DNA of 18,162 nucleotides from the NCBI GenBank assembly GCA_041497675.1, contig JBGQGY010000078.1:1-18162 (forward strand), in the 5' to 3' direction. The notes beneath the pieces were generated by a model. That model had not been told where the DNA came from. It was given only the letters and a program-made list of their open reading frames with translations, and did not search any database. Position 1 is the stretch's first letter. Each line of letters begins with the position of its first letter. The position numbers and the translations under genes were made by a program. Positions 1,871 to 16,819 of this stretch are shown here, one piece after another. The stretch is from a bacterium (GTDB lineage: Bacteria > Sysuimicrobiota > Sysuimicrobiia > Sysuimicrobiales > Humicultoraceae).

Positions 1871-2983
1871 ATGAAGCTCTTTCCGACGCAGGAAATCGGG
1901 AGCATCGCCAAACCCGGCTGGCTGGTGAAGGCGACCCGGGGACAACGGCCCAATGCGGCCGACCTGGCCGACCTCGACCGCTGGGCCGAACGTCTGGGGA
2001 TCGACGGGACCGGCGAATTGAAGACGCTGCTGGCCGACGAGCACCACGACAAGGAGCGTGTCCGCGATTGGGGCGCGATCTTTGCCGTGCGCTTCTTTGA
2101 AGCGGCGGGTCTCGACGTCGTCTATGACGGTGAAGCGCGGCGGGTCGAGATGTACGAGTATCCGGTGCGCCGGATCGCGGGGTTCCACTTCTACGGCCAC
2201 GTGCGGTCGTTCGACAACAAGTACTATCGCAAGGCCGCGGTGGTCGACCGCGTGCGGTTGGTCGAACCGTTCCACATCGACGAGCTGAAGTTCGTGAAGT
2301 CGATTGCGCGGCGGCCGGTGAAGATCCCGATCACGGGGCCGTACACGCTGGCCGACTGGTCGTTTAATGAACACTACTTGAAGACCGTGGATGCGTCGGT
2401 CAAGGATCTTCGCAAGCGGTCCTATGCGGCCAAGCATGCGTTCACGCTCGATCTGGCGCGCGAGGTGCTGAACCCAACGCTGGAAGCGCTCGAAGCGGCG
2501 GGGGCCGACTGGATTCAGATCGATGAGCCGGCGGCCGCGACGCACCCCGATGAGGTGCCGATCCTCGTCGAGGCGTTCAACGAGTCTGTTCGCGGCATCA
2601 AGGCCAAGATCAGCATCCATATCTGCTACAGCAACTACCGCCTGCTCTACCCTGAGATGCTCAAGATGCGGGTGGACCACCTGGCGCTGGAGTTCAAGAA
2701 CACCGGCGATTTCAACGTGGTGCAGTTGTTCAAGGATCAGGGTGACCGGCGGGAACTCGGTCTCGGGGTGCTCGACGTCCACACCGACGTCATCGAGACG
2801 CCCGAAGAGATCAAGGACAAGATCCTCGAGGCCGCCCGGGTGTTGGGGCCGGAGAAGATCTGGGCGAACCCCGACTGTGGGTTGCGCACGCGCACGTGGG
2901 ACGTCGCGTTCACGAAATTGCGGAACCTGGTCGAGGGCGCGGGGCTGGCCCGCCAAGCGCTCAAAGGGCAGCCCGTAGGATAA
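1871..2983 (+). CDS. metE: Cobalamin-independent methionine synthase, catalytic C-terminal-half subunit
   Basis: PTQEIGS, GLDVVYDGEARR, ITGPYTLADWS, IQIDEPA, Zn ligands HICY...E and NPDCGL. ATG is 5 nt after the upstream stop. Confidence 0.92.
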   Translation: MKLFPTQEIGSIAKPGWLVKATRGQRPNAADLADLDRWAERLGIDGTGELKTLLADEHHDKERVRDWGAIFAVRFFEAAGLDVVYDGEARRVEMYEYPVRRIAGFHFYGHVRSFDNKYYRKAAVVDRVRLVEPFHIDELKFVKSIARRPVKIPITGPYTLADWSFNEHYLKTVDASVKDLRKRSYAAKHAFTLDLAREVLNPTLEALEAAGADWIQIDEPAAATHPDEVPILVEAFNESVRGIKAKISIHICYSNYRLLYPEMLKMRVDHLALEFKNTGDFNVVQLFKDQGDRRELGLGVLDVHTDVIETPEEIKDKILEAARVLGPEKIWANPDCGLRTRTWDVAFTKLRNLVEGAGLARQALKGQPVG

Positions 2984-2994
2984 ACGGGGGAGCT

Positions 2995-4917
2995 GTGCGC
3001 ACGTTCTTCATTACCACGGCAATCGACTACGTGAACGCCAGCCCGCATATCGGCCACGCGTACGAGAAGGTTCTGGCCGACGTGCTGGCGCGTTTCAACC
3101 GGCTCCGTGGCCGCGAGGTGTTCTACCTCACCGGCACCGACGAGCACGGGCAGAAGAACGCCAACTCGGCGCAGGCGGCCGGGAAGGGCGTGCGCGCCTT
3201 TGTCGACGACAACGCCGCGCGATACCGCGATCTGGCCGACCGGCTGAACCTCTCCATCGACGACTTCATCCGTACCACCGAGCCACGCCATGCGTTGGGC
3301 GTGAAGCAGATCTGGGAGCGTGTGGCCGCCGCGGGCGACTTCTACAAGAAGAACTACAAGGCGCTCTATTGCGTGGGGCACGAGGCCTTCGTCACGCTGA
3401 GCGATCTGGTCGACGGGAAATGCCCCGATCACGGCGTCCAGCCCATCGTGATCGAGGAGGAAAACTACTTCTTCCGGCTGTCCAAGTACCGGGCGCACCT
3501 GAAGCGTCTGTTCACCGATCGCCCCGACTTCGTCGTCCCGCAGGCGCGCTACAGCGAGATGCTGAACCTGATCGATACCCTCGAAGATATTTCAGTGTCG
3601 CGACCGGTCGAGAAGCTGTCGTGGGGCATTCCGGTGCCCGGCGATCCGTCACACGTCATCTACGTCTGGTTTGACGCGCTGACGAACTACATCACCGCGG
3701 TCGGGTACGGACGTGACGATGCGGCGTTTCATCGCCGGTGGCCGGCGCATCACGTGATCGGGAAGGATATCAACCGCTTTCACTCGCTTCTCTGGCCGGC
3801 CATGCTGATCTCGGCGGGTCTCGAACCGCCCCGGCAGGTCCTGGTCCACGGGTTCCTGACCGTGGAAGGGCAGAAGATGAGTAAGACGTTGGGCAACGTC
3901 ATCGATCCCCTCGCGCCCCCGCGCGATCTCAGCGAGGCATCGGGCGCCGATTTCGCGGTGTGTGTCGATGCGCTGCGCTACTACCTGCTGCGCGACATCC
4001 CATTTGGTGAGGACGGCGACTTCAGCCGGGCGGGTCTGATCGGGCGGTTCAACTCGGACCTGGCCAACGACTATGGCAACCTCCTCAACCGGACGCTGGC
4101 ACTGGTGACGCGCGACTTCGGGGGGGGCGTGCCCGAACGGCGCGAGGAGGACGGTACCGACGCGGGCCTGCGACAGATCTCGCTGGAGGCGGCCGGAACT
4201 GCGGACGCGTGCATTGACCGGCAGGATTTCCGCGGCGCGTTGGACGCTGTCTGGAGGGTGCTGGCCGCGGCAAACAAGTACATCGATGAGGAAGCGCCCT
4301 GGTCGGCGATCAAGAAGGGCAGGTCTGAGCGCGCGGGCACGATCCTCTACAACACGCTAGACGCCGTGCGGATCGCGACGATTCTCCTGTCGCCGGTGCT
4401 GCCGACGGCGGGGGCGCGTGTGTGGGACCAGCTGGGGATTGCCCAGCCGTTGTCCGGCCAGCGGCTGGACGACGCACGTCGATGGGGCGCCTTGCCGAGC
4501 GGCGTCCCGGTGAAGCCGGGCGTGCCCGTGTTTCCGAGGATCGACACCAGACCCAAAGTCGCGACGCCGGCAGGCGCGCAGGGAGATCAGGTGGACGAGA
4601 TCACGATCGACGAATTCAGAAGGCTTGATATCCGGGTCGGTGAAATCACCGCCGCCGAGCGCGTCCAAGGCACCGACAAGCTCGTGAAGCTCACGGTGGA
4701 TATCGGTGACGAGGTGCGCACGGTGGTCGCCGGCATCGCGACGCACTATCAGCCGGCGGATCTGGTGGGCCGGCGCATCGTCGTGCTGGCGAACCTCAAA
4801 CCCCGGCAGGTCCGTGGCGTGGAGTCGCGTGGGATGATGCTCGCGGCGACCTGGGGTAACGACGTCGCCATCCTGACGGTGGATCGCTCCGCGCCCAAGG
4901 GCTCGAAGATCTCTTAG
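2995..4917 (+). CDS. metG: Methionyl-tRNA synthetase with C-terminal tRNA-binding (Trbp111-like) domain
   Basis: GTG start after GGGGAG. Motifs FFITTAIDYVN, HIGH, GTDEHGQK, YVWFDAL, GKDINRFH and KMSKT. C-terminal LDIRVG...NLKPRQVRGVESRGM. Confidence 0.97.
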   Translation: MRTFFITTAIDYVNASPHIGHAYEKVLADVLARFNRLRGREVFYLTGTDEHGQKNANSAQAAGKGVRAFVDDNAARYRDLADRLNLSIDDFIRTTEPRHALGVKQIWERVAAAGDFYKKNYKALYCVGHEAFVTLSDLVDGKCPDHGVQPIVIEEENYFFRLSKYRAHLKRLFTDRPDFVVPQARYSEMLNLIDTLEDISVSRPVEKLSWGIPVPGDPSHVIYVWFDALTNYITAVGYGRDDAAFHRRWPAHHVIGKDINRFHSLLWPAMLISAGLEPPRQVLVHGFLTVEGQKMSKTLGNVIDPLAPPRDLSEASGADFAVCVDALRYYLLRDIPFGEDGDFSRAGLIGRFNSDLANDYGNLLNRTLALVTRDFGGGVPERREEDGTDAGLRQISLEAAGTADACIDRQDFRGALDAVWRVLAAANKYIDEEAPWSAIKKGRSERAGTILYNTLDAVRIATILLSPVLPTAGARVWDQLGIAQPLSGQRLDDARRWGALPSGVPVKPGVPVFPRIDTRPKVATPAGAQGDQVDEITIDEFRRLDIRVGEITAAERVQGTDKLVKLTVDIGDEVRTVVAGIATHYQPADLVGRRIVVLANLKPRQVRGVESRGMMLAATWGNDVAILTVDRSAPKGSKIS

Positions 4918-4953
4918 TCAGATTTCCAATACGCCGCGCCCCTCCCGGGGCAC

Positions 4954-4978
4954 GTTTGGCCCGCCCGCACGGGGGTAA
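4954..4978 (+). promoter_or_regulatory. SigB-type promoter of csbD
   Basis: GTTT-N15-GGGTAA, about 40 nt upstream of the ATG. Confidence 0.8.
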
Positions 4979-5018
4979 AACGTTGTTGCAAGGAAACCCC
5001 GTGCCAGGAGGTGCGCGA

Positions 5019-5234
5019 ATGAACAGTGACATGCTCATGGGCAGATGGAAGCAGCTGCGCGGTCGGATCAAGGCCAAGTGGGGCCAGCTGACCGACGACG
5101 AGTTGAACGAGGTCGAGGGCAACTACGAGATGCTCGTCGGCAAGATCCAGGAGAAGTACGGTACGACCCGCGCGCAAATCGAGCGCGAGCTCGACGCGTT
5201 CGCGTCGCAGGAGCCCGCACAGAAGCCGCGTTGA
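5019..5234 (+). CDS. csbD: CsbD/YjbJ family general stress protein
   Basis: RBS AGGAGG. MNSDMLMGRWKQLRGRIKAKWGQLTDDEL...GKIQEKYG is the YjbJ-type signature. Confidence 0.93.
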   Translation: MNSDMLMGRWKQLRGRIKAKWGQLTDDELNEVEGNYEMLVGKIQEKYGTTRAQIERELDAFASQEPAQKPR

Positions 5235-5265
5235 CCGGCCAGGTCGCAGGCGTGTGCGGGAAGCA

Positions 5266-5294
5266 CCGGGGGTCCTCCGTCCGGGGATCCCCGG
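5266..5294. terminator. GC-rich hairpin between convergent genes
   Basis: CCGGGGGTCCTC-cgtcc-GGGGATCCCCGG, a 12 bp stem including G-U pairs. No U tract. Confidence 0.5.
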
Positions 5295-5309
5295 ACTCTA
5301 TTGCGGCGG

Positions 5310-5585
5310 TCAATCTGTCCGGCCGGTCGCAGGTCGGGTGGCCTCGCGCAGCATGTCCAGCGTAGCTTCAAGCGTCTTGATCCGAAGTTTGCGGTCGTTG
5401 ATGAGCTTCTCCGGAGCCACACTGAGCCCGACGAAGTCCAAAAGTGCCAGATCATCGAGGTCCACGGAGATCGGAACGATCTGACCGGTGAGAAGACCAA
5501 CGTCACGCCGATAGCGGTCGATGGTCCGCTCGACGCGGGCCATCGCTGCTGTTCGCCCATCGACTGTCCGTCGTCCTCTCCCCAT
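5310..5585 (-). CDS. Hypothetical protein (alternative start ATG at 5543)
   Basis: 91 aa ORF with protein-like composition, directly downstream of a SigB-type promoter. Confidence 0.55.
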   Translation of the reverse strand: MGRGRRTVDGRTAAMARVERTIDRYRRDVGLLTGQIVPISVDLDDLALLDFVGLSVAPEKLINDRKLRIKTLEATLDMLREATRPATGRTD

Positions 5586-5597
5586 CCTTCGCTTTTG

Positions 5598-5623
5598 TTA
5601 CCCAGATCGGACATCGCTCAAAC
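5598..5623 (-). promoter_or_regulatory. SigB-type promoter
   Basis: GTTT-N16-GGGTAA on the minus strand. Confidence 0.75.
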
Positions 5624-5674
5624 GGGCGCATGAATCGCAGGCGCACAGGCCTCCATCTCCGGCTCTGCCGACAG

Positions 5675-5701
5675 GTTTGACGAAGCGGCCGCTCGGGGAA
5701 A
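5675..5701 (+). promoter_or_regulatory. SigB-type promoter of rsbW-sigB (putative autoregulation)
   Basis: GTTT-N17-GGGAAA. Confidence 0.65.
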
Positions 5702-5823
5702 AAACAGTGAGCGGGCTGAGATGGCGGAGGAGCAAGAGGTCGAGGACGAGAAGGCAGATGAAACCGGGACGAGGCATTCATCAGGTGCGTCACCTGACCA
5801 GTCACTTGACGCGAGGAGCGGCC

Positions 5824-6228
5824 GTGGAGTCCGACACGCCTTCTTTTCAGCCGGGCGTCCGCCAGGATCAGATCGAGCTGACGATTCCGGCTCGCGCCGA
5901 GTACGTGGCAGTAGTCCGGTTGACAATCGCCGGCGTCGCGGGCCGGATGTCGTTTTCCTACGACGCTAGTGAGGACCTGAAAGTCGCCGTCAGCGAGGCC
6001 TGCACAGTGGCTGTCCTTTCAGGCGGGCCAAAAGTGCAAGTCCGGCTTGAGATGGCCTCCGACCGGTTGGGCGTTCGCGTCACCTACCAGGCATCGGGAC
6101 GTTCCGACGAGCGTGGCCAGGAGCGCGAGCTCGCCATGCTCTTGATCGGCTGCCTGATGGATGAGGTTCGGACGGAGCGGCGCGGGCCTCAGCACGTCAT
6201 CTGGATGACGAAGAGACTTCAACGGTAG
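5824..6228 (+). CDS. rsbW: RsbW-family anti-sigma factor with degenerate ATP-binding motifs (alternative start ATG 5758)
   Basis: RBS AGGAG plus GTG. IELTIPARAEYVAVVRLTIAGVAGRMSFSYDASEDLKVAVSEACT...LMDEV...MTK closely resembles RsbW. Located directly upstream of the sigma gene. Confidence 0.88.
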   Translation: MESDTPSFQPGVRQDQIELTIPARAEYVAVVRLTIAGVAGRMSFSYDASEDLKVAVSEACTVAVLSGGPKVQVRLEMASDRLGVRVTYQASGRSDERGQERELAMLLIGCLMDEVRTERRGPQHVIWMTKRLQR

Positions 6229-6232
6229 GCTC

Positions 6233-7015
6233 GTGACTGGTCGCCCTAAACAGAAGCCGCGGGGCCAGCGCGTCCCGCGCGAGCTCTTCGTCGAGTACGC
6301 GCGCACCCGCGATCCGGCGATCCGCGAGCAACTCCTGCTGGCTCACTCGGCGCTTGCGGCCTATTTTGCTCGCCGGTTCGCGTATCGTGGAGAACCTCTG
6401 GAAGATCTCGCGCAGGTGGCTCATCTCGGCCTCCTCCAAGCGATCGATCGCTATGATCCTACACGGGAAGTCGAGTTCAGCACCTATGCGTCGGCGACGA
6501 TCGTTGGCGAGATCAAGCGATACTTCCGTGACAAGACGTGGTCCGTTCACGTGCCGCGCCGGTTGCGGGAGCGCAACAACGCGTTGATGCGGACTCTCGA
6601 TACTCTCACGGCGAAGCTGGGTCGTTCACCGACCATTCAGGAACTGGCCGAGGCGACGGGCGTTTCGTTCGAGAATGTCGTGGAGACCCTGGAGGTCGGA
6701 CTTGCCTACAATCCGGCGTCGCTCGACGCAGAGGTGCGCAACACTGAAGAGGACGATTCGTCCTCACTGCTCGAGTACCTTGGGACGGACGATCCGGCGC
6801 TGACGCACACGGAGGATCGGCACACGATCGAAGAGGCGCTGCATTCGCTCCCCGGGCGGGAGCAGTTAATCATCTGGCTGCGCTACTATGAGAAGCGATC
6901 TCAAGCAGAGATCGCGGAGCGACTCGGCATCTCGCAGATGCACGTTTCGCGGCTTCAGCGGCAGGCCTTGCACCGTCTGCGCGCTGAGATCACCAGCGAG
7001 CATCTTGCTTCATGA
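6233..7015 (+). CDS. sigB: SigB/SigF/SigG family RNA polymerase sigma factor
   Basis: EDLAQVAHLGLLQAIDRYDP...FSTYA...GEIKRYFRDKTWSVHVPRRL, GRSPTIQELA, and region 4 SQAEIAERLGISQMHVSRL. Confidence 0.95.
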   Translation: MTGRPKQKPRGQRVPRELFVEYARTRDPAIREQLLLAHSALAAYFARRFAYRGEPLEDLAQVAHLGLLQAIDRYDPTREVEFSTYASATIVGEIKRYFRDKTWSVHVPRRLRERNNALMRTLDTLTAKLGRSPTIQELAEATGVSFENVVETLEVGLAYNPASLDAEVRNTEEDDSSSLLEYLGTDDPALTHTEDRHTIEEALHSLPGREQLIIWLRYYEKRSQAEIAERLGISQMHVSRLQRQALHRLRAEITSEHLAS

Positions 7016-10000
7016 GCCGGCCGGTACCGGTCGATCCAGCGTCCAACTGAGCTGCACCGTGGTCCCGCCCGGCGTGGTGAAGGTCTTCACTCCATCCGAA
7101 AATCTCTGCATGATACTTGTTCCACGGCCGCGGCCGCGTTCGACCTGCGGCCGCCACTGACCGAAGTCTCTGACGGTCACAGTGATCGCGTTCCCGGTCA
7201 GCTCTCCTCGGACCACGATATTGCCACGGATGCCACGGTAGGCGTGCTCAACGACATTGAGCGCGGCCTCGCCCACCGCGATGACAATTTCTTCGGCGCG
7301 TCCATCGGACATGCCGAGGCGTCGGACATAGGTACGAACAAGCCGGCGGATCCGGCCGAGGTTTTCGGGTGCGGCGGACAGCGTGGCCGAAGCTGGAGCG
7401 TCCACCGGCAGGACATCCAAAATCAGCAGCGCCACGTCGTCGTCCGGTTCTGCGCCTCCGAGCGCGTGTTCGACCACCGCGTCCACGGCGCGGTCCGCCG
7501 GACTGTCTTGCGTCGCGCGGATTGCCTCCAGCAACCGCCGCTCGCCAACGAGAACATCACGGGTCGCCTCGATGAGGCCGTCGGTGTATGCGACCAGCCG
7601 GCTCCCAGGTTCCAAGGTGGTGTGGGCCTCACGGTACGGCGCCGACAAGGAAACGCCCAACGGGGGACCAGTAGACTCTAGTTGTTCGACGCCGCGATTC
7701 GTCAAGGCGAGCGGGGGAGGGTGGCCGGCCCCGCTGTACACCAGATTTCCGGTGAATGGATCGAAGGCTGCGACCCATAGCGACACCTGCAGGCTGTCGG
7801 CCACGCTGCACAGCAGGCGATTGACGGTTGTAAGGATGCGTACCGGCGTCTGACCCTCGAAAGCGTACGCGCGCACGACGTGTCGCACCTGCCCCATCGC
7901 TGCGGCCGCGGCCATACCGTGGCCGGCCACGTCGCCGATGCTCAGCAGCAGCTGATCATCTGACAGCAAGATTGCGTCATACCAGTCGCCCCCCACCTTG
8001 ACCTCGGGATCCGCCGGACGGTACGTGGCCCCCAGACTCGCAAACGGTGTCTTTGGCAGATCGACGGGGAGCAGCGCTCGCTGTAGAGTTTCCGACAGCT
8101 CTCCGATGCGCCGCTGGGCCTGCTCGAGGAGCTGGAAGCGTGAGATCGTGATCGCGAGCTGATCGGCAATGGGTTGGACGAGCTTCACGTGCGCCTGCGA
8201 GTAGAAGCGGGGTTCATGATGCTCGAGTTTCAGCGTGCCGATGGGCTTTCCGCCCACGCTCATCGGCACAACCGCGTAGGAGCGAATGCCCGCGCTCGCC
8301 AGCACAACGTCTTCGCTAAACTCGTGGGTTTCGGTCGTGTCCTCACGGACGAACGGCGTTCCGGTGTCGAGGACCCAACCGCGCGCCGTCCCGGCCGTGG
8401 GACCCTCCAGGCTCTCGCGCGGTGCGCTCAGCCGGAGTCCCTTAGCGTAGGGCACAATGAGCGAGTTGCGGTCTGGACCGTACAGCGAGACCGCCAGACG
8501 GTCAAAAGGCAGCAGGAGCTGTAACGCCTCCGCGAACTCGTCGAAAGCTGCGCCGGGATCGAGCGAGGACGCGGCGATGGAGATGACACGACCTGCAGCG
8601 TTGACTCGTCGGGCCTCACGCTCGGCGTCCTCCAGCGCCCGGCGCTCGGACGCCGCCAGCCGCGCGTTCGTGATTGCGACCCCCGCGCGGTCCGCGATGA
8701 GTGATGCCAGCCGTTGCTCGTCATCGTCCCAGCCTCGTGCCGACTCGCTCATGACAGACAGAATGCCGAGCGGTTCGCCGCCCGTATAGATCGGCACAGC
8801 GAGCAGTTCGTGTACTCCGAGCGGGCCGAACATGCTGTCGGCCAGGGGGAGCTGTGCGCGGAGGTCCCCGATGTTCGGATCGTCGGCGGTCAACAAGAAC
8901 GGACGCCGGCCGTCGAACAAGGCGGTTGCGAACGGATGATCGACCGGGAGCGGCGCGGCGTCGAACGCGGACCGGAGACGCGTGATCTTTGAGGGATCCT
9001 TGTGGAAGATCGCGCCAAGCCGCGCCGACCGCGCGTCCGGATCGATCAGGGAGATCGCACACCATTCCCCGAAAGACTCGGCACAGCGTTTGGCGACCGT
9101 ATCGAGCAGCACTGCGAGGTCTCGTTGCGTGGCAAACTCGAGCATCATATCGGCAAGGAAGGCCGTGTGCCGCTCGCGTCGCCGTTGCTGGTCGCGGGCG
9201 CGAATCTGCTGCAAGGCAAGCGCGACGCGGTCGGCGGCCGCCCGCGCCACCGTCACGGTCTCATCGTCCCAGACGTGGCCCGGCTTCACGAAGATCGCCA
9301 GGATCCCCAGGGCATCGTCTCCTGCCAGCAGTGGCAGGAACAAGGCAGCGTCAAACTGGAAGCGCGCCAACCAATCGACCCACGCACGCACATCTTCTGG
9401 TACCGTCTCGATCGACTGATCTACCCGCAGCACCATCATTGGCTCAGCCGCTGCGAGCATGCGTCGCAGCAGCGGTCCGCCGTTGGCGAGCGACGCTTCT
9501 GCGAAGGCGGATGTCAGTCGTTCTCGCCCTGCTGTGTCGGTGGAGAAGAAGGCAGCGGGCTCAGGCACTCCCGTGCGCTGGCGGCTGAGAATGAGGCCGC
9601 ATGCGTCTCCCAAGGATTCCGTGAGTTTCTGGCAAACGGCTACCGCAAAATCCTTCCGCTCGGGTTGGAGCATCCGCAGCGTGGCCACTTCGGCGAGAAA
9701 CGTGTCGCGCTGTTTCTGGTGGCGGCTTCTTGCCAGGTCCTCACGCAGCCGCTCATGATACCTCGAGGTGTGCGTTCCCGCGAGCGCCATCAGCGCGCCG
9801 CTGAACAAAAATATCAGAGCCGGGAGGAGTTCGGTGCGCAGCCCGTCGAGGACGTTGCCCACGTGCGGGGTCGAGATGTAGCTGGCCAATACCGTACTGG
9901 CCAAGACGCTGACGAGCCCCGGCCACAGCCCTCCAAAATAGGAGACGAGGAACAGGCCGGGCATGTACAGGAAGAGGAACTGATAGGCGAACAGCTTCGC

Positions 10001-10117
10001 CAGGATCACGAGAATCAGCGAAACAAGGTAGGGGACGAGCACCGCTGCGAGGAACGCGAGGGCCGTCCTGACCGCTCGACGGCGAAGTCCTACTCCTTTG
10101 AAGCGACTTTCACCCAT
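7010..10117 (-). CDS. Membrane sensor: N-terminal TM bundle (DUF4118-like), three GAF domains, SpoIIE/PP2C phosphatase, C-terminal RsbW-like HATPase
   Basis: Hydrophobic N-terminus with GGLWPGL. GAF motifs LFLPL..LGIL, LLAVPI..LGIL and YAVVPM..IGTL. PP2C motifs LQRALLP, VGGDWYD, GDVAGHG, YTDGLIE and DDVALL. HATPase motifs EAALNVVEHAY, VRDFG and GRGRG. Confidence 0.93.
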   Translation of the reverse strand: MGESRFKGVGLRRRAVRTALAFLAAVLVPYLVSLILVILAKLFAYQFLFLYMPGLFLVSYFGGLWPGLVSVLASTVLASYISTPHVGNVLDGLRTELLPALIFLFSGALMALAGTHTSRYHERLREDLARSRHQKQRDTFLAEVATLRMLQPERKDFAVAVCQKLTESLGDACGLILSRQRTGVPEPAAFFSTDTAGRERLTSAFAEASLANGGPLLRRMLAAAEPMMVLRVDQSIETVPEDVRAWVDWLARFQFDAALFLPLLAGDDALGILAIFVKPGHVWDDETVTVARAAADRVALALQQIRARDQQRRRERHTAFLADMMLEFATQRDLAVLLDTVAKRCAESFGEWCAISLIDPDARSARLGAIFHKDPSKITRLRSAFDAAPLPVDHPFATALFDGRRPFLLTADDPNIGDLRAQLPLADSMFGPLGVHELLAVPIYTGGEPLGILSVMSESARGWDDDEQRLASLIADRAGVAITNARLAASERRALEDAEREARRVNAAGRVISIAASSLDPGAAFDEFAEALQLLLPFDRLAVSLYGPDRNSLIVPYAKGLRLSAPRESLEGPTAGTARGWVLDTGTPFVREDTTETHEFSEDVVLASAGIRSYAVVPMSVGGKPIGTLKLEHHEPRFYSQAHVKLVQPIADQLAITISRFQLLEQAQRRIGELSETLQRALLPVDLPKTPFASLGATYRPADPEVKVGGDWYDAILLSDDQLLLSIGDVAGHGMAAAAAMGQVRHVVRAYAFEGQTPVRILTTVNRLLCSVADSLQVSLWVAAFDPFTGNLVYSGAGHPPPLALTNRGVEQLESTGPPLGVSLSAPYREAHTTLEPGSRLVAYTDGLIEATRDVLVGERRLLEAIRATQDSPADRAVDAVVEHALGGAEPDDDVALLILDVLPVDAPASATLSAAPENLGRIRRLVRTYVRRLGMSDGRAEEIVIAVGEAALNVVEHAYRGIRGNIVVRGELTGNAITVTVRDFGQWRPQVERGRGRGTSIMQRFSDGVKTFTTPGGTTVQLSWTLDRPVPAGS

Positions 10118-10458
10118 GCCCTGGCTCCGGCCAGCGCCTCAGCCTGCGACACGAACGTAGGAAACACATCCTTCAGACCCGTAATCGTGAATATACGGTC
10201 GATCTGCGGTTGGTTGAAGACTAAGCCCAGCATGCCGCCGGCTCCCTGCACGTGCTTCAGCGCCGATGTCAGGATCGACAGCGCGGTGCTGTCCAAGTAG
10301 GTCGTGTCCAGCAGGTTTACCAGGAAGTGAACCTGCCCGGTCGCCAGGAGCTCATCCAGCGCCGCCTTCAACTTGGGCGAGGTGTAGAGGTCAATTTCCC
10401 CAGACACGTCGACGACCGGGACGACTCCATCGCGTCGCGTACTGATACTTGCTTCCAC
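10090..10458 (-). CDS. rsbV: STAS domain anti-sigma factor antagonist (RsbV/SpoIIAA family)
   Basis: RBS AGGAGG plus GTG. VSGEIDLYTSPKLK, YLDSTALSIL (phosphoacceptor Ser) and RIFTITGL. Confidence 0.92.
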   Translation of the reverse strand: MEASISTRRDGVVPVVDVSGEIDLYTSPKLKAALDELLATGQVHFLVNLLDTTYLDSTALSILTSALKHVQGAGGMLGLVFNQPQIDRIFTITGLKDVFPTFVSQAEALAGARAWVKVASKE

Positions 10459-10551
10459 GCGACCGTCACCTCCTGTAAGATGTGCCCCCGGCCTCATCAG
10501 CATAGCATAGTCGATGCACGGGTCTCATGTTGCACTCCCCTCTAAGAGCAC

Positions 10552-10594
10552 GTTCCCCTCCCGGTCCGGGTTTGAAACCCGAGCATCGAGGTAA
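10552..10594. promoter_or_regulatory. Overlapping divergent SigB-type promoters (rsbV operon and collagen-like gene)
   Basis: The palindrome GGGTTTgAAACCC (10568-10580) supplies GTTT on both strands. Plus strand: GTTT-N15-AGGTAA. Minus strand: GTTT-N17-GGGAAC. Confidence 0.6.
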
Positions 10595-10632
10595 AACATA
10601 GTCGATAGGCTTCAAAGGAGGGAGGATAGCCC

Positions 10633-10929
10633 ATGAGCAAGTTCGCAGCAGGTTTGATGCTCCTCATGCTCTTGACACCACTGGCCTTGGGCACCGTCGC
10701 GTTGGCCCAGGGCGATCCGCAGCAGCCGCCTCCAGGTCAGCCCGGGGCACCAGGAGCACCTGGGGCTCCCGGTGCGCCCGGCCCGCAGGGGTCGCCCGGC
10801 CCCGCGGGGCCATCGGTCCTCGGATTAGACCCGGCCTTCGTAGTGGTCATCGGAGCATTGTTGCTGCTGGTGATCGTCCTTGCCATCGTAGCGGTGTCCC
10901 GCGGCGGCGAACGGCCGACAACGTCCTGA
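10633..10929 (+). CDS. Small exported, membrane-anchored protein with a short collagen-like Gly-X-Y repeat
   Basis: RBS GGAGG. Signal peptide ending ALA-Q, then GQP-GAP-GAP-GAP-GAP-GPQ-GSP-GPA-GPS, then a C-terminal TM helix. Confidence 0.85.
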   Translation: MSKFAAGLMLLMLLTPLALGTVALAQGDPQQPPPGQPGAPGAPGAPGAPGPQGSPGPAGPSVLGLDPAFVVVIGALLLLVIVLAIVAVSRGGERPTTS

Positions 10930-11007
10930 CTTGACGGGGGCCGGGTTCGAGCCTCGGCCCGCGCCACGCCTTGCGGCTCTGTGTGTTCGCAGGGAGCAAT
11001 CATCAGA

Positions 11008-11257
11008 TCAGCTCGCCCCCCGATCCTTCAGAATCGTCATCGCGATCTTCTCACGGTCAGGCGTACCCCGCGCAAGGGATCGCACGAAATGCGTAAGCTG
11101 CTCCGCCGGCATCGGTAGCTCATAGGGGTCAACGACCGCTTCGATGAGTACAGGGGGCCTCGATCGTGACACCGGTTCCGCCGCATGCGTGCGCAAAGGC
11201 GGCGGAGTCGATCGGCTGCAACTCGCACCCGTACTCGGGGTTACCCAGGAACACCAT
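11008..11257 (-). pseudogene. Remnant of a TPP-dependent pyruvate oxidase/dehydrogenase (PoxB/YdaP-like) C-terminus
   Basis: One frame gives MVFLGNPEYGCELQPIDSAAFAHACGGTGVTIE. After a deletion/frameshift, another frame gives PVLIEAVVDPYELPMP...FVRSLARGTPDREKIAMTIL. The rest of the gene is absent. Confidence 0.75.
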
Positions 11258-11344
11258 TTACCTCCGACCATATCCACATCCCGGCCCGCTCCCACGTGGC
11301 GGCGTTCGTGTGGAAAACGCGTCAAGTGTGCCCGTCCGAACAGC

Positions 11345-11468
11345 AGAGAAAGAGAGAGCGCGCCGGTCTTGGCAGATCAAGTGAATGACCCCGTTGGCCG
11401 GGCGTTGACAGGATCAGTGACCTGATGTACCGGCGCGTCTCTCAGCGAAGGCCGGAGCTTCGCCAACG
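11345..11468 (-). ncRNA. Candidate SigB-dependent structured small RNA (no family recognised)
   Basis: Lies downstream of a GTTT-N15-GGGTAA promoter. It has a 5' hairpin plus a three-helix rod whose wobble pairs form only on the minus strand, and a pyrimidine tail. Confidence 0.5.
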
Positions 11469-11474
11469 CATCTT

Positions 11475-11499
11475 TTACCCGGGACGCTAAGCAGCAAAC
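11475..11499 (-). promoter_or_regulatory. SigB-type promoter with no intact CDS downstream
   Basis: GTTT-N15-GGGTAA on the minus strand. Confidence 0.72.
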
Positions 11500-11659
11500 A
11501 CGGTACAGGACAACTACACATGTGCGCGCTGCTACTCGGTACCCTGGGCAGTAGTAGGCCGCGAGGTCTGGATCCCGGCGGCGAGACAAGTCCTGTGACT
11601 TATCCTCACCTGCACCTCGGGTATGGAGCCCGAGTTGGCCTTCCGATTGGCTAGACAAC

Positions 11660-12004
11660 CTAGCCACCGCGATGGGGACGCTCGTAGAAGCTGGGTGCCA
11701 TTTCCGCCGGACTCACAAAGTCAAGAATGTCCACTCGTTGGGTACGTTCCGGGCTGGCTCGGCGAAGGTCGTCGTCCGTGACGACAACATACTGGTCTTC
11801 TTGGTATTCGTACCCTCGGACGATGTCCTCATTCGCCACGGGCTTTCCGGTGCGCTTATTGATCTTTTGATACCCGATTGGCGAAAAGTCCCGCTTGTCT
11901 AGTAGGGCGAAGTTCAGTTCATCACGGGTCTCGGCCGGGTAAAGCGTGACTGGGACGTTGACGAGCCCAAAACGGATGTGACCCTTCCAGATGGCTTGCG
12001 GCAT
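11660..12004 (-). pseudogene. ku: Truncated NHEJ Ku protein (114 aa N-terminal part)
   Basis: RBS AAGGAG. MPQAIWKGHIRFGLVNVPVTLYPA...IVRGYEY...VDILDFV...FYERP, after which similarity ends abruptly. Confidence 0.9.
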
Positions 12005-12036
12005 GATAACGGCTCCTTGGACTCTCAGTGTGCAAT

Positions 12037-12062
12037 TTACCGCCATTTGGGTCGCCGTAAAC
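12037..12062 (-). promoter_or_regulatory. SigB-type promoter of ku
   Basis: GTTT-N16-CGGTAA. Confidence 0.62.
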
Positions 12063-12147
12063 GCTGTGCGGGCGGGCGCATCTAGCGCGTCTAGGACGAA
12101 GCGACTCTGGAGAAAAGCGGGGTACTCTTCACAAGGAGGTTGGCGGG

Positions 12148-12351
12148 ATGGCTCGTTACGGGAAATCGGCGCAGAGATCTGTCGAGCGAGCGATGCGAAA
12201 ACGCAAGCACGGCACCTTGCGGAGCGGCCGCAGCGGCAAGAGCGTGACCAGCAAGAAACAGGCGATTGCGATCGGGCTATCAGAAGCGCGGAAGAAAGGC
12301 GGCAAGGTCCCGTCGAGATCACGAAGTCGAGCGAAAAGATCGAAGGGATAG
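12148..12351 (+). CDS. DUF6496-like small basic protein
   Basis: RBS AAGGAGG. GTLRSGRSGKSVTSKKQAIAIGLSEARKKG signature. Confidence 0.88.
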   Translation: MARYGKSAQRSVERAMRKRKHGTLRSGRSGKSVTSKKQAIAIGLSEARKKGGKVPSRSRSRAKRSKG

Positions 12352-12392
12352 CACATGTCTACCCCGAGGTTGGAGCGCGGCTCGACCATACT

Positions 12393-12539
12393 CTAGGCCG
12401 TGCGCCCGCCCGTGATGAAATTGTAGAGTAGAACGATCGCCGCAACGACGAGGAGCAGGTGAATGAGGCTTCCTGCCACATGGAGGCTGAAGCCAAGAAT
12501 CCACAAGACGAGAAGAACGACAAGCAGAGTCCACAGCAT
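12393..12539 (-). CDS. lmo0937-family (DUF5670) small membrane protein, copy 1 (48 aa)
   Basis: Not in the ORF track. RBS AAGGAG. MLWTLLVVLLVLWILGFSLHVAGSLIHLLLVVAAIVLLYNFITGGRTA. Confidence 0.9.
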   Translation of the reverse strand: MLWTLLVVLLVLWILGFSLHVAGSLIHLLLVVAAIVLLYNFITGGRTA

Positions 12540-12583
12540 CGCGTATCTCCTTTTGCGCTCGATTCTGCGCTATGCCCCAAGTT

Positions 12584-12609
12584 TTTCCCCGATCGTGCAG
12601 GCGATAAAC
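12584..12609 (-). promoter_or_regulatory. SigB-type promoter of lmo0937-family copy 1
   Basis: GTTT-N16-GGGAAA. Confidence 0.7.
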
Positions 12610-12649
12610 CAACCGTGTGGGCGCGTGGGAACCGAGCATCCCCTCGCGT

Positions 12650-12674
12650 GTTTGGCACTTCACAGAGCGGGACA
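12650..12674 (+). promoter_or_regulatory. SigB-type promoter of the yciF-like pseudogene
   Basis: GTTT-N15-GGGACA. Confidence 0.55.
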
Positions 12675-12718
12675 TAACCAAGACGCAGGTCCATTTCTCA
12701 CTCGTGAGGTGAAGGTCC

Positions 12719-13054
12719 ATGAAGATGTCGTCGTTGCGCGATTTGTTTTGTAGAGGAGCTCCGAGACCTCTACAATGCTGGGTCTCAGCTCGTGAAGGCG
12801 CTGCCCAAGATGGTGAAAGCGGCACAGAACGCCTGAAGCAGGCCTTCAAAGAGCATTTGGAACAAACCCGCGGCCACGTCCAGCGCATCGAGGAGATCTT
12901 TGAGGGTCTCGACGGGAGCCCGAAAGGCAAGAAGTGCGTCGGGATGGAGGGTCTCATCGCGTAGGGAAGCGAGTTAATGAAACAGGACGGAGAAGAGGCC
13001 GTGATCGACGCGGGATTGATTCTGGCCGCACAGAAGGTCGAGCATTACGAGATT
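12719..13054 (+). pseudogene. YciE/YciF (DUF892) ferritin-like pseudogene
   Basis: MKMSSLRDLF, then a +1 shift to VEELRDLYNAGSQLVKALPKMVKAA, then a shift back to LKQAFKEHLEQTRGHVQRIEEIF...CVGMEGLIA, then TAG at 12962-12964, then IDAGLILAAQKVEHYEI, then truncated. Confidence 0.9.
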
Positions 13055-13090
13055 CGCGGAGCGCAGACTAGCGAATCCGAAACAAGGAGC

Positions 13091-13116
13091 GTTTGGTCGA
13101 CGAAGCCCACGGGTAA
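13091..13116 (+). promoter_or_regulatory. SigB-type promoter of the intact DUF892 gene
   Basis: GTTT-N16-GGGTAA. Confidence 0.78.
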
Positions 13117-13169
13117 AATCGCAACGCAAATCAGCGTGACAGATTCCAAAAAAGGAGGGCGGAGAAGCC

Positions 13170-13847
13170 ATGGACGAGCGTCAGCCGCAATCTGACGAAC
13201 GTGAACAGCCAGGCCACCAGGACGACGATTGGGAGCGAGGGGGACGCCAGGCTCCAAAGCCGGGACCGGGGCACATGCCGGAAAGGAATCCACAACAGCC
13301 CGGCGGCGAGAGAATGCCGGATGCACCGGGAGTCCCGCGAGTGCGACGCCTTCTTACCACGTTACGAGATCTGTATGTTGTCGAGCTGCGAGACCTCCGG
13401 AGCGCTGAGGGTGCTGTCGAAGCGGCGTTTGCACAAATGGGACAAGGCGCGTCCACGGTCCCTCTTCAAGGGCTACTCACGCAGTGTGTTCAACAAGCCC
13501 GGCGCCACATTGGGGCGCTTGATGCCGTACTCGCCGAGACGAGACCGGCGAATCGTGATGACCAGAGTCAGGGGATGCAAGGAATTGCCGATGCGGGTAG
13601 CCGGCTCGTCCAGGAGCACCAGGCGTCTGTAGCGCTGGATGCCGCTCTGATCGGCGTCGCCCAAAAGGCGGCCCTCTACAAGATGGCGGGTTACGACTCG
13701 GCGCGCTGTTTTGCCGGTGTCCTTGGTGATGCCGAGACGCACCGCGTCTTGCAGGAGTGTCTGAACGACGAAGCGGATGCCGATCGCTGGCTGACGCGAC
13801 TTGCCGAGGACCTGGTCAATGTCCGCGCGCTCGCGCCGGAGCGTTGA
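13170..13847 (+). CDS. YciE/YciF (DUF892) ferritin-like protein with a low-complexity N-terminal extension
   Basis: RBS AAGGAGG. TLRDLYVVELRDLRSAE, GMQGI, LDAALIGVAQK, LNDEADADRWLTRLAE and VNVRA. Confidence 0.85.
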   Translation: MDERQPQSDEREQPGHQDDDWERGGRQAPKPGPGHMPERNPQQPGGERMPDAPGVPRVRRLLTTLRDLYVVELRDLRSAEGAVEAAFAQMGQGASTVPLQGLLTQCVQQARRHIGALDAVLAETRPANRDDQSQGMQGIADAGSRLVQEHQASVALDAALIGVAQKAALYKMAGYDSARCFAGVLGDAETHRVLQECLNDEADADRWLTRLAEDLVNVRALAPER

Positions 13848-13957
13848 CGTCCGCTTCGTGTGGTCTCGACGACCGGCCACGACGGCGCGAGCGCTGCAGC
13901 CCGGGCTTGCCTTCAAGCGAGCACTCTAGTGAGCGGAATGTGTGGAGGTGGCGCAGT

Positions 13958-14125
13958 ATGAGACAGGTGAAGAAAGTGTCCCCTCAGACCAAGCCCCGAA
14001 AGAGACGAGGGACGCAGATCGACGAGACGAAGGTGCGGGCGCCTTCGACACGCCCAGCCGGCAGAGTTCGGCGCGCGAAGGTTTCACCGGCTGCCCCGCC
14101 GCGCTGGGACGACCAGGCTCCTTGA
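13958..14125 (+). CDS. Small basic hypothetical protein (55 aa)
   Basis: GGAGGT RBS before ATG. K/R/P-rich. No family recognised. Confidence 0.4.
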   Translation: MRQVKKVSPQTKPRKRRGTQIDETKVRAPSTRPAGRVRRAKVSPAAPPRWDDQAP

Positions 14126-14154
14126 CTCAGGGCGCTTCGCTCGGTTGTCGCCCG

Positions 14155-14289
14155 TTATGACAGGCGAGACCGTGGCCGCAGTTCGCCCTCTACGTCAAAA
14201 ATCTCCGCGACCTCGATGACAACTCCAGCCTGTCGGTGGTTGAGGACGACCAGGAACGCTTCCCCCTGATCCATACCCTGCCAGATCAT
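14155..14289 (-). CDS. Possible small hypothetical protein (44 aa) or gene fragment
   Basis: GGGAGG just upstream. MIWQGMDQGEAFLVVLNHRQAGVVIEVAEIFDVEGELRPRSRLS. Confidence 0.3.
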   Translation of the reverse strand: MIWQGMDQGEAFLVVLNHRQAGVVIEVAEIFDVEGELRPRSRLS

Positions 14290-14381
14290 TCCTCCCGGTG
14301 CTCGCCAGACCTCGAAACTAGGCAATTGGGTCTCCCTCCCAGTCTAGTAGGATCACACGACGGACCGCGGGTGTGAGGGCC

Positions 14382-14561
14382 TTACGACACTCGAGCCTCT
14401 CGCGAGGCGATCAGGAAGGCAACACCGCCGGCAATCGCTAAGACGCCCAAAATTGGAGGGAGCGACGCCACCCCAAACGCGCCGCCCGCTCCGATCGCGT
14501 ATGCGACAGAGGCTATGCTTAGCGCAATCAAGAGCGTTGCGACCATCATCAGGCGCCGCAT
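14382..14561 (-). CDS. Small two-TM membrane protein (59 aa), shortened paralog of 15639-15869
   Basis: Not in the ORF track. MRRLMMVATLLIALSIASVAY...LPPILGVLAIAGGVAFLIASREARVS. Starts 16 nt after the upstream stop. Confidence 0.7.
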   Translation of the reverse strand: MRRLMMVATLLIALSIASVAYAIGAGGAFGVASLPPILGVLAIAGGVAFLIASREARVS

Positions 14562-14577
14562 CGTCGGTGGTCCGGCC

Positions 14578-14730
14578 TCAGATAGCCGGTCTTCGCCACT
14601 GAATGATGTTGATCACGAGAACGGCCAGCGCAATGACAAGAAGCAAGTGGATGAATCCACCGAGTGTGTAGGACGAGACCAAACCCAGCAGCCACAGCAC
14701 TAACAGGATTACAAAGATCGTCCAAAGCAT
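14578..14730 (-). CDS. lmo0937-family (DUF5670) small membrane protein, copy 2 (50 aa)
   Basis: Not in the ORF track. MLWTIFVILLVLWLLGLVSSYTLGGFIHLLLVIALAVLVINIIQWRRPAI. Confidence 0.9.
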   Translation of the reverse strand: MLWTIFVILLVLWLLGLVSSYTLGGFIHLLLVIALAVLVINIIQWRRPAI

Positions 14731-14775
14731 CTCCTGGCCCCTTTTTTAGGATTTGTCCTCAGAATTCGCGCCAAT

Positions 14776-14802
14776 TTTCCCCGCTGCCGCGTCGTTCAAA
14801 AC
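14776..14802 (-). promoter_or_regulatory. SigB-type promoter of lmo0937-family copy 2
   Basis: GTTT-N17-GGGAAA. Confidence 0.65.
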
Positions 14803-14845
14803 ATGTCGCCACTCGTATGCGCGACGATTATCCGTCGCCCCATTG

Positions 14846-14872
14846 GTTTCGGACCACGGCGCTCCGGGGAAA
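14846..14872 (+). promoter_or_regulatory. SigB-type promoter
   Basis: GTTT-N17-GGGAAA. Confidence 0.6.
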
Positions 14873-14928
14873 ATTCTCACGATCTTACCGTGCCCCGCAT
14901 TTCGAACATGGTGTTGGGGAGGCCACAA

Positions 14929-15057
14929 ATGAGCTCAAAGACAAACATGGGACGTGTGAAGCGCAATTTTATCGAATGCGCCTCAGCCCTTGGCCACGCC
15001 CACGGATCTGCGGTCCGAAAGCGTCCGGGCGGTTGCCGCGGCGGTGAGCCAGGCTGA
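14929..15057 (+). CDS. Small hypothetical protein (42 aa) or gene remnant
   Basis: GGGAGG RBS and an upstream SigB-type promoter. MSSKTNMGRVKRNFIECASALGHAHG... Confidence 0.35.
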   Translation: MSSKTNMGRVKRNFIECASALGHAHGSAVRKRPGGCRGGEPG

Positions 15058-15077
15058 TTGAATCGCACGTACAGCAT

Positions 15078-15103
15078 GTTTGAGCGACGGTGGCCTCGGG
15101 TAA
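15078..15103 (+). promoter_or_regulatory. SigB-type promoter
   Basis: GTTT-N16-GGGTAA. Confidence 0.75.
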
Positions 15104-15156
15104 AAGACAGCAGGCAGCTTGCGAACGGACTCTGGGAACTCAAAGGAGGGAGTCGC

Positions 15157-15616: not shown

Positions 15617-15638
15617 GATACCTTCTCCTGATTGCAGA

Positions 15639-16803: not shown

Positions 16804-16819
16804 ATCCTGAGGGAATGAT

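Follow-up and report, generated by a model that had tools for sequence, protein, structure and literature searches.

Which protein phosphorylates the STAS antagonist of a SigB-type partner switch when the RsbW-like anti-sigma factor has lost its ATP site? This question is raised by a contig of 18,162 bases (C78), analysed over its entire length and called the window here, from a 3.97-Mb genome in 272 contigs that is rated 98.6% complete. The genome belongs to a small, uncultured phylum, and the comparisons below cover its 94 species genomes, all from one order; their public records bear the titles 'bacterium', 'Armatimonadota bacterium' or 'Bacillati bacterium ANGP1'. Two convergent operons lie in the window, flanked by metG (2896-4917) and tatD/M48 (16015-17923). 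One carries a gene for a small RsbW-like protein followed by a gene for a sigma factor of the SigB/SigF/SigG family (sigB), and the other a gene for a STAS anti-sigma-factor antagonist followed by a gene for a large membrane sensor that has both a SpoIIE-type PP2C phosphatase domain and a C-terminal RsbW-like HATPase domain. A sequence-only reading of this locus had proposed that the RsbW-like protein merely sequesters the sigma factor and that the sensor both writes and erases the phosphate on the STAS protein. Domain content, loss or retention of motifs and their conservation, uniqueness within the genome, synteny, fold and the modelled RsbW-STAS interface were computed directly. We favour, with somewhat better than even confidence, a split partner switch in which a pseudokinase anti-sigma factor and a bifunctional sensor control a SigB-type general-stress sigma factor.

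The RsbW-like protein and its ATP site

The RsbW-like protein matched the HATPase_c_2 family over the whole profile (PF13581, positions 1-127 of 127, 45.3 bits with a cut-off of 27.4). It fell below the cut-offs of both RsbW models, scoring 88.1 bits against 145 for the RsbW equivalog NF003144, of which only positions 4-90 of 161 were matched, and 83.7 against 155.05 for TIGR01924, of which only the N-terminal half was matched. The N-terminal half of the protein is near B. subtilis RsbW (phmmer E 3.9e-18); the N-terminal region is kept, as the sequence-only reading had stated. HMMER alignment with B. subtilis RsbW (6m36) placed Val at the position of the N-box Asn ('avseactvav' against 'avseactnav'), TYQA in place of the DxG of G1 ('vtyqa' against 'vadeg') and RELA in place of the GGLG of G2 ('qerelamll' against 'seggLGLYL'). 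The three losses that had been read from the sequence (Val, YQA and RELA) were thus reproduced, and a fourth was added to them, as the ATP lid is deleted as well. Only 6 residues separate G1 from G2, compared with 21 in two Bacillaceae RsbW proteins, a shortening of about 15 residues.

An AlphaFold model of the RsbW-like protein had a pLDDT of 89.2 and a pTM of 0.83. The fold closest to it was that of B. subtilis RsbW bound to RsbV (6m36; E 2e-12, TM 0.96 on target, 44% identity over the ordered residues), followed by UsfX in the UsfX-RsfB complex (8ih8, 23% identity), by SigF-UsfX (8jzt) and by SpoIIAB.

A homologue search of 5.8 billion proteins returned 193 matches, with a step in the list between the first 24 (E <= 4e-24) and the remainder (E >= 3.5e-15). 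The N-box Asn was absent from 24 of 24 proteins in this clade, that is, the window protein and its 23 nearest database matches (42-84% identity), and seven different residues (V, Q, A, D, E, T and S) occur at the corresponding position 62. Lid deletion and a degenerate G2 were common to all 24 members, and the N-box Asn was retained in all eight canonical comparators. Twenty-five alignment columns are invariant within the clade, and the pattern as a whole suggests that the ATP site is under relaxed selection with the rest of the protein conserved.

The same loss was found throughout the phylum. Among 36 distinct RsbW-like rows from related loci (identical sequences merged; the unpublished genomes G024 and G017 supplied loci L005 and L009) the N-box Asn was missing in 34. 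One of the two exceptions is a C-terminal fragment in G080 that does not contain this region, and the other is a paralogue in G045 (contig C238) that is not beside sigB and has the Asn, DxG and a Gly-rich G2. The lid is 5-6 residues long in families f1-f3 and 12-19 residues long in family f4, where G2 reads 'EGRLG/ESRLG'; the families thus show two grades of decay. Because the motif loss is conserved across clade and phylum, it is not decay of a single strain. The sequence-only reading had named strain-specific decay, recognizable from close orthologues with intact boxes, as an outcome that would count against it, and the orthologues of the clade lack intact boxes. From these data we consider the RsbW-like protein to be very probably catalytically dead. 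The database name 'serine/threonine-protein kinase RsbW', which one source gives to such proteins, is probably wrong.

The sensor, the STAS protein and the genome inventory

Both catalytic domains of the sensor carry their expected motifs. The PP2C domain contains GGDWYD, GDVAGHG, TDGL and DDD, and the HATPase domain has the N-box EAALNVVEH, a G1 of DFG and a G2 of GRGRG. Among 12 orthologues (52-59% identity) the Asp motifs of PP2C were invariant in all 12, as were the Glu, Asn and His of the N-box, DxG of G1 and GRGRG of G2. The earlier description of an intact PP2C domain and intact N, G1 and G2 boxes in this 1035-residue protein was therefore accurate; the shortness of its ATP lid had been overlooked. 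PP2C followed by an RsbW-like GHKL domain is the layout of bifunctional partner-switch regulators. The best PDB match to the HATPase sequence was Rv1364c (3ke6, E 1.4e-10), and a model of the PP2C and HATPase half (pLDDT 87.6) gave as its best fold match the RsbU-RsbW domains of the same structure (E 6.6e-25, 31% identity). On the input side the sensor has DUF4118 and three GAF domains, neither the REC domain of HsbR and CrsR nor the PAS domain of Rv1364c.

The STAS protein belongs to the anti-sigma-factor antagonist class (TIGR00377, 78.3 bits with a cut-off of 53.45). Its phosphoacceptor, reported earlier as LDST, lies in YLDSTAL (Asp56-Ser57-Thr58, numbered from the GTG at 10458), and D-S-T was invariant in 14 of 14 orthologues. 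The STAS gene and the start of the sensor gene overlap by 28 nt, an overlap that is kept in three related loci (L023, L024 and L028) and is 17 nt in two others (L037 and L038). The sigma factor scored 272.9 bits with the SigB/F/G model TIGR02980 (cut-off 234.35) and matched Sigma70_r2, r3 and r4.

We took an inventory of partner-switching components in the genome. It contains one STAS match, which is at this locus, one SpoIIE PP2C match, which is that of the sensor, and one SigB/F/G match over the TIGR02980 cut-off; a search of the genome for PP2C_2 returned none. Sixteen HATPase_c_2 matches were found, of which the top two are the RsbW-like protein and the sensor domain of this locus. Four of the other 14 were checked, and all four are HisKA histidine kinases. 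With one STAS protein, one SpoIIE PP2C and two RsbW-type domains, the locus appears to be the only partner-switching module of the organism. Because of this inventory, the domain in the sensor would be the sole RsbW-type domain in the genome with an intact ATP site.

The interaction of the RsbW-like protein with the STAS protein was modelled as a complex of two RsbW-like chains and one STAS chain. The model scored 0.77 (0.76, 0.77 and 0.77 in separate runs), and the best of three controls scored 0.00; of 157 solved complexes 116 reached the mark applied here, as did 2 of 215 mismatched pairs. At least 96% of the contacts agreed between runs and the partner pLDDT was at least 90. The modelled interface comprises residues 24-32, 47-65 and 99-111 of the RsbW-like protein and residues 21-25, 54-61 and 84-93 of the STAS protein, with STAS Ser57 touching Glu58 and Thr61. 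Nine of the 25 clade-invariant residues lie in it (R24, E26, R32, D47, E50, K53, E58, C60 and L111). The model supports binding between the two proteins, as a likeness to known complexes and not as a proof.

Across the 94 genomes the RsbW-like protein was found in 46, a match to the PP2C-HATPase query in 47 and a STAS protein in 51. All three parts were present in 43 genomes, none in 39 and some in 12; these tallies include the unpublished G017 and G024, and related genomes are not independent observations. The conservation of motif loss in RsbW orthologues and its occurrence together with the fused sensor, both of which the sequence-only reading had proposed to check, were thus borne out. Three genomes have the RsbW-like protein without the other two parts. 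In G021 (91% complete) the contig stops just past rsbW, G020 (79% complete) has rsbW and a frameshifted sigB, and G080 (100% complete) has fragments only.

Synteny was counted at the loci of 18 other genomes. In 10 of them (G034, G025, G016, G045, G040, G048, G051, G043, G041 and G042) the rsbW-sigB pair converges on the sensor gene, and the STAS gene follows behind the sensor in eight of these, the loci of G034 and G040 ending at a contig edge before that point. The adjacency of rsbW and sigB was kept in every locus that reaches far enough. G020 lacks sensor and STAS, and the loci of G021 and G056 are cut by contig ends. A convergent layout was also found, by coordinates alone, in the two unpublished genomes (sensor and rsbW in G017; sensor, STAS and rsbW in G024).

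Motifs resembling SigB-type promoters are concentrated on this contig. The Bacillus SigB promoter consensus is of the GTTT...GGGTA type, the same type as the motifs found here. GTTT-N13-17-GGGTA occurred five times in the window (0.14 expected) and GTTT-N13-17-GGGGAA also five times (0.11 expected). The combined pattern GTTT-N13-17-GGG(TA|GAA) had 57 matches in the 3.97-Mb genome, 10 of them on this 18-kb contig, and no other 18-kb tile held more than two. Genes preceded by a motif include those for the CsbD-family general stress protein, the small ORF divergent from rsbW, rsbW itself, STAS, a DUF892 protein, a DUF5670 protein and others. Similar motifs were present upstream of rsbW in four related loci (L021, L023, L024 and L034) and upstream of STAS in one. 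From 4954 to 15102 the contig looks like a SigB-regulon island, csbD is likely to be a regulon member, and the sigma factor, judged from the motif pattern, looks active.

The proposed switch, its rivals and known systems

The split switch that we favour would divide among several proteins the jobs that Bacillus RsbW does alone. The RsbW-like protein would still have a dimeric Bergerat fold and, on it, the face for contact with sigma factor and STAS protein and, not binding ATP, would act only as a stoichiometric anti-sigma factor; that it still holds the sigma factor is quite likely. Unphosphorylated STAS protein would bind the pseudokinase and set the sigma factor free, a displacement that we regard as probable, and STAS protein phosphorylated on Ser57 could not do so. 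The sensor HATPase would phosphorylate Ser57 and the sensor PP2C would take the phosphate off. Of these two activities, dephosphorylation of STAS by PP2C is the one we would predict with good confidence, and the assignment of the STAS kinase to the sensor HATPase is held with moderately favourable odds. The kinase is placed there because of the elimination of other candidates within the genome. The balance of kinase and phosphatase would depend on signals that the sensor takes in with its DUF4118 membrane domain and three GAF domains, and free sigma factor would transcribe from GTTT-N14-15-GGG(T/G)A promoters, including those of the csbD, DUF892 and DUF5670 genes of the contig; both signal direction and promoter use are inferred. 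Both switch operons are probably also under the control of their own sigma factor. The proposal that RsbW only sequesters and the sensor writes and erases thus gained from the genome inventory and from the fit of the RsbW-STAS model, and its kinase step stays at the level of a prediction.

Several observations weigh against this scheme. In the sensor HATPase, G1 and G2 are only about 9 residues apart, a short lid as in Rv1364c, and the loop was modelled with a pLDDT below 50; kinase competence of such a domain would not be assured. A 2008 study by Sachdeva is reportedly titled 'Loss of kinase activity in ... Rv1364c'. The genome has one Hanks-type Ser/Thr kinase, which could act on the STAS protein. 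As like complexes have been solved (6m36, 8ih8 and 1th8), the passing score of the RsbW-STAS model may reflect memory. The promoter motifs are pattern matches only, and some related loci have none in front of rsbW or STAS. The compact pairing, which the sequence-only reading had singled out as the notable part, was found in the 10 of 18 genomes described above; in four of the 18 (G044, G023, G054 and G055) STAS converges directly on sigB with no sensor between, the orthologous sensor of G023 being on another contig, and in one, G010, the two operons are on different contigs. Compact pairing is therefore common, not obligatory. Finally, the functional steps of the scheme are predictions.

The main rival to the split switch, which we hold to be unlikely, follows the model of CrsR and HsbR. 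The sensor HATPase would then be the main anti-sigma factor, for the SigB-type or another sigma factor, or a sink for STAS protein at the membrane, letting sigma factor go once dephosphorylated STAS has bound; an auxiliary anti-sigma factor or buffer is what the small pseudokinase would then be, and kinase activity of the HATPase may or may not persist. In CrsR of S. oneidensis and HsbR of P. aeruginosa the HATPase is an RpoS anti-sigma factor as well as a STAS kinase (PMC6482189), a precedent that also counts against our scheme, and Rv1364c, to which the C-terminal half of the sensor is closest (31% identity, E 6.6e-25), is reported to interact with SigF (cited in PMC7693655). However, a dedicated anti-sigma gene lies 4 nt upstream of sigB and is kept there across the phylum, the half of the RsbW-like protein that would bind sigma factor and STAS is strongly conserved, and the invariance of N, G1 and G2 in the sensor argues that nucleotide chemistry, not binding alone, has been retained. 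A sensor that is mainly a phosphatase is less probable again. Its HATPase would be an intramolecular regulator in the style of RsbT acting on RsbU, and the STAS protein would be phosphorylated by another kinase, for example of the Hanks type, or not at all. The short and poorly modelled lid, the single Pkinase gene of the genome and the phosphorylation of a STAS homologue by PknD in M. tuberculosis (PMC1847690) fit such a sensor, but all 12 sensor orthologues (52-59% identity) share the N-box Glu, Asn and His, DxG and GRGRG, all 14 STAS orthologues keep D-S-T, the gene for STAS runs 28 nt into that for the sensor, and the four other HATPase_c_2 matches that were checked are histidine kinases.

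It is decidedly improbable that the operons are independent neighbours, with an RsbW-like gene that is a decaying remnant or is regulated otherwise (for example by redox through the invariant Cys60) and a STAS-sensor pair that controls something else. The separate contigs of the operons in G010, the rsbW and frameshifted sigB that remain in G020 (79% complete) without STAS or sensor, and the fragments in G080 (100% complete) would suit this explanation. Yet the RsbW-like gene is intact, with 42-84% identity, 25 invariant columns and a confident model; STAS stays by rsbW-sigB even where the sensor has moved; the three parts are together in 43 and absent together in 39 of the 94 genomes; the modelled interface uses invariant residues on both sides; and the genome search found no other STAS or anti-sigma antagonist. 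We give very little credence to the last alternative, that the RsbW-like protein has a nucleotide site of a non-canonical kind with which it still phosphorylates STAS. In its favour, the N-box Glu58 is invariant and lies beside STAS Ser57 in the model. Against it, seven different residues stand in the clade where the Asn that holds Mg-ATP would be, neither G1 nor G2 is left, and the lid has shrunk to 5-6 residues in f1-f3. In addition, M. smegmatis RsbW1, which groups with kinase-less anti-sigma factors, had no kinase activity on RsfB in vitro (PMC7693655).

Comparison with known systems places the split switch among established designs. The likeness to RsbV-RsbW-SigB of B. subtilis is in the RsbW protein itself (the closest RsbW to the small protein by phmmer, E 3.9e-18, and by fold, E 2e-12), in the rsbW-sigB gene order and in the D-S-T phospho-site of STAS. 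Unlike in B. subtilis, the RsbW-like protein has none of N-box Asn, G1, G2 and lid, STAS is encoded together with the sensor in the convergent operon and not upstream of rsbW, and the genome, with one STAS and one SpoIIE PP2C in all, has no stressosome STAS, RsbU, RsbP or RsbX.

The same division of labour as we propose has been demonstrated by experiment in the mycobacterial SigF system of UsfX/RsbW1, RsbW2, RsfR and RsfB (PMC7693655 and PMC10950880). RsbW1 of M. smegmatis is an anti-SigF factor that binds SigF and does not act as a kinase on RsfB in vitro; the only RsfB kinase is RsbW2, in which N, G1 and G2 are intact (PMC7693655). The REC-PP2C protein RsfR dephosphorylates RsfB (PMC10950880). 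The solved UsfX-RsfB (8ih8) and SigF-UsfX (8jzt) complexes both match the RsbW-like model. The differences are that kinase and phosphatase are separate proteins in mycobacteria and fused here, that input there is by a two-component system and here by a TM-GAF module, and that there are several antagonists there and one here. Mycobacterial UsfX is 22-23% identical to the RsbW-like protein, compared with 44% for Bacillus RsbW, and is thus an analogue and not an orthologue. Because of these identity figures, which are the whole basis in place of a tree, the loss of the kinase looks independent of the UsfX lineage.

Rv1364c (PAS-PP2C-kinase-STAS, 3ke6) is the best solved match to the PP2C and HATPase half of the sensor and shares its short G1-G2 spacing. 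It differs in having its STAS domain fused, where the STAS protein here is encoded by a separate overlapping gene, and in a PAS input where DUF4118 and three GAF domains in the membrane are found here. It is reported to be both kinase and phosphatase for the Ser of its own STAS domain (PMC9138534, also PMC7693655). HsbR and CrsR, which are REC-PP2C-kinase proteins, phosphorylate and dephosphorylate the separate STAS proteins HsbA and CrsA, and unphosphorylated HsbA binds FlgM, a non-kinase anti-sigma factor (PMC6482189). In the HsbR-HsbA-FlgM and CrsR-CrsA-RpoS systems, as is predicted for the sensor here, one PP2C and HATPase protein writes and erases the phosphate; the input is a receiver domain, FlgM is unrelated in fold to RsbW, and the HATPase also sequesters RpoS (same source). 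The sequence-only reading had looked to Actinobacteria for precedents, which M. smegmatis supplies, and HsbR-HsbA-FlgM in P. aeruginosa means that they are not found only there (PMC6482189).

Within a collection of open-access papers, a search on anti-sigma factors that are pseudokinases or kinase-negative brought up nothing about this phylum or about the exact arrangement. A 2009 study by Greenstein is said to describe kinase and phosphatase activity of Rv1364c on its own STAS domain, and a 2011 study by King-Scott is also cited. OsaC of Streptomyces is a multidomain RsbW-like/PAS/GAF/PP2C regulator of SigB. SypE of Vibrio fischeri, a multidomain regulator with an RsbW-like kinase and PP2C, reportedly acts on the single-domain STAS protein SypA; its order is said to be kinase-REC-PP2C and its output biofilm control, with no sigma factor or pseudokinase partner known.

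The split of anti-sigma and kinase roles has already been shown experimentally in mycobacteria and Pseudomonas and is not a new principle; as the concept is established, a specialist would find the locus neat, not surprising. New here are a pseudokinase of Bacillus-type ancestry, an ATP site lost throughout the phylum, a minimal system with one of each part, the TM-GAF input and the tight convergent packing beside a cluster of SigB-type promoter motifs. The locus would be a minimal natural split switch in a deep-branching uncultured lineage, with one sigma factor, one pseudokinase anti-sigma factor, one STAS protein and one bifunctional sensor. If this is true, RsbW has more than once lost its kinase activity and ceded the task to a PP2C-HATPase sensor, and a simple four-protein system would be at hand in which to ask what the kinase activity of RsbW is for. 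We put forward a wider scenario more tentatively, at somewhat less than even confidence. A SigB-linked RsbW of Bacillus-type ancestry would have lost its ATP site at or near the root of the phylum, independently of the mycobacterial UsfX lineage, and STAS phosphorylation would have passed wholly to PP2C-HATPase sensors, which can be added or removed without touching the anti-sigma core. The output would read the state of the sensor only, insulated from the ATP-dependent reset of Bacillus RsbW, and the convergent stop-overlapping operons with their SigB-type motifs would add mutual antisense or feedback control.

Features of the window and related loci

Features of the two operons, the promoter-like motifs and the neighbouring genes are collected in Table 1. 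A longer rsbW ORF beginning at 5521 was dismissed, as the Arg/Pro-rich extension that it adds has no homologue and the alignment with the orthologues begins at about residue 1 of the form that starts with GTG at 5824.

Table 1. Positions of genes, domains and motifs in the window
Feature	Position	Strand	Remarks
CsbD-family general stress gene, 71 aa	5019-5234	+	PF05532, 59.4 bits (cut-off 40); AGGAGG upstream; in the metG-rsbW gap
Small ORF divergent from rsbW	5585-5310	-	SigB-type motif at 5623-5599
rsbW-like gene, 134 aa	5824-6228	+	GTG start; GAGGAG 6-7 nt upstream
SigB/SigF/SigG-family sigma factor gene (sigB), 260 aa	6233-7015	+	begins 4 nt past the rsbW stop
Membrane sensor gene, 1035 aa	10117-7010	-	convergent to sigB
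Sensor HATPase_c_2 domain, RsbW-like, C-terminal, aa 914-1025	7043-7378	-	77.5 bits
Sensor SpoIIE-type PP2C domain, aa 720-902	7412-7960	-	PF07228, 163.4 bits
Sensor third GAF, aa 520-658	8144-8560	-	best-scoring of three GAF matches
Sensor, two further GAF matches	roughly 8561-9670 (approximate)	-	
Sensor DUF4118 membrane domain, aa 23-122	9752-10051	-	PF13493, 30.7 bits (cut-off 28.4); hydrophobic sequence
STAS anti-sigma-factor antagonist gene, 122 aa	10458-10090	-	GTG start with AGGAGG upstream
Small Pro/Gly-rich membrane protein, divergent from STAS gene	10633-10929	+	weak collagen-repeat match; hydrophobic ends
DUF5670 small membrane protein	14578-14730	-	56.5 bits; SigB-type motif just upstream
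DUF3096 small membrane protein	15476-15709	-	62.1 bits
SigB-type motif GTTTGG-N14-GGGTA	4954-4977	+	upstream of csbD
SigB-type motif GTTTGA-N14-GGGGAA	5675-5700	+	124 nt upstream of the rsbW-like start
SigB-type motif GTTTCA-N14-GGGGAA	10578-10553	-	upstream of the STAS gene
All promoter-like motif sites	4954+, 5623-, 5675+, 10578-, 11499-, 12609-, 13091+, 14802-, 14846+, 15078+		

The stops of sigB and the sensor gene overlap convergently by 6 nt (7010-7015), and in related loci this junction ranges from a 14-nt overlap to a 57-nt gap. It leaves no room for terminators, so that the transcript of each operon would run antisense into the other. Scans of 4800-11100 were uninformative for both signals sought, with one sigma-70 promoter-like site (0.8 expected) and six terminator-like sites (3.3 expected), none of them between the convergent genes. 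An Rfam scan of the whole window at gathering thresholds gave no match. Contigs from RNA libraries (X17, X19 and X20; X18 is doubtful) match parts of rsbW, the sensor gene and the STAS gene at 90-100%, for example X19 at 5865-6014 with no differences and X17 at 5723-6191 with 15. As DNA carry-over is possible, these matches show neither transcription nor transcript ends, and bins that are not covered are uninformative.

The module varies in size among related genomes. Family f4 (G057-G079) has expanded it, with per-genome maxima of 9 for matches to the PP2C-HATPase query and of 21 for STAS matches; among the sensor matches are ones that have in-frame stops or span the PP2C part only, and the sigB-linked RsbW is still without the N-box Asn. 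On one f4 contig (G079:C312) STAS-rsbW-sigB-STAS stands beside a divergent STAS-sensor pair. In G080, of family f5, two RsbW-like fragments, a 56-residue match to sigB and an N-terminal fragment of the sensor remain (L045, C1:697000-707000), with no STAS or PP2C-HATPase found anywhere in this genome; here the whole module has decayed together. In G020 (C132, locus L022) rsbW-sigB, with sigB in two frames, is about 0.9 kb from tatD-M48. In the window sigB and tatD are 9 kb apart, and the genes for the sensor, STAS, Ku, DUF892 and small membrane proteins lie between them; the difference is due to a deletion in G020 or else to an insertion in the window.

The Ku gene seems incomplete, as positions 2-102 of the 190-position Pfam Ku profile were matched at residues 118-215 of a 220-residue ORF (11660-12322, minus strand), and no family was matched by the ORFs on either side of it (11377-11667 and 12319-12957). 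The cause could be a frameshift, a gene that is split or a fault in the assembly. Besides these two flanking ORFs, Pfam had no family for the ORFs at 5310-5585, 11008-11325, 13757-14125, 14664-15047 and 15058-15390.

A search of the protein atlas with the ORF at 5310-5585 gave a best score of 0.81, under the level of meaningful matches. Homologues of this ORF were found in the rsbW loci of five genomes (G021, G023, the unpublished G024, G025 and G016). It is also 49% identical over 80 residues to the C-terminal extension of the RsbW-like protein with canonical motifs in G045 (C238, locus L052, 3981-4667), a fusion that hints at a functional link to RsbW-type proteins. Homologues of the small membrane protein encoded at 10633-10929 adjoin STAS or the sensor in nine related loci (L023, L025, L026, L030 and L034-L038), and this protein may be a membrane partner of the sensor.

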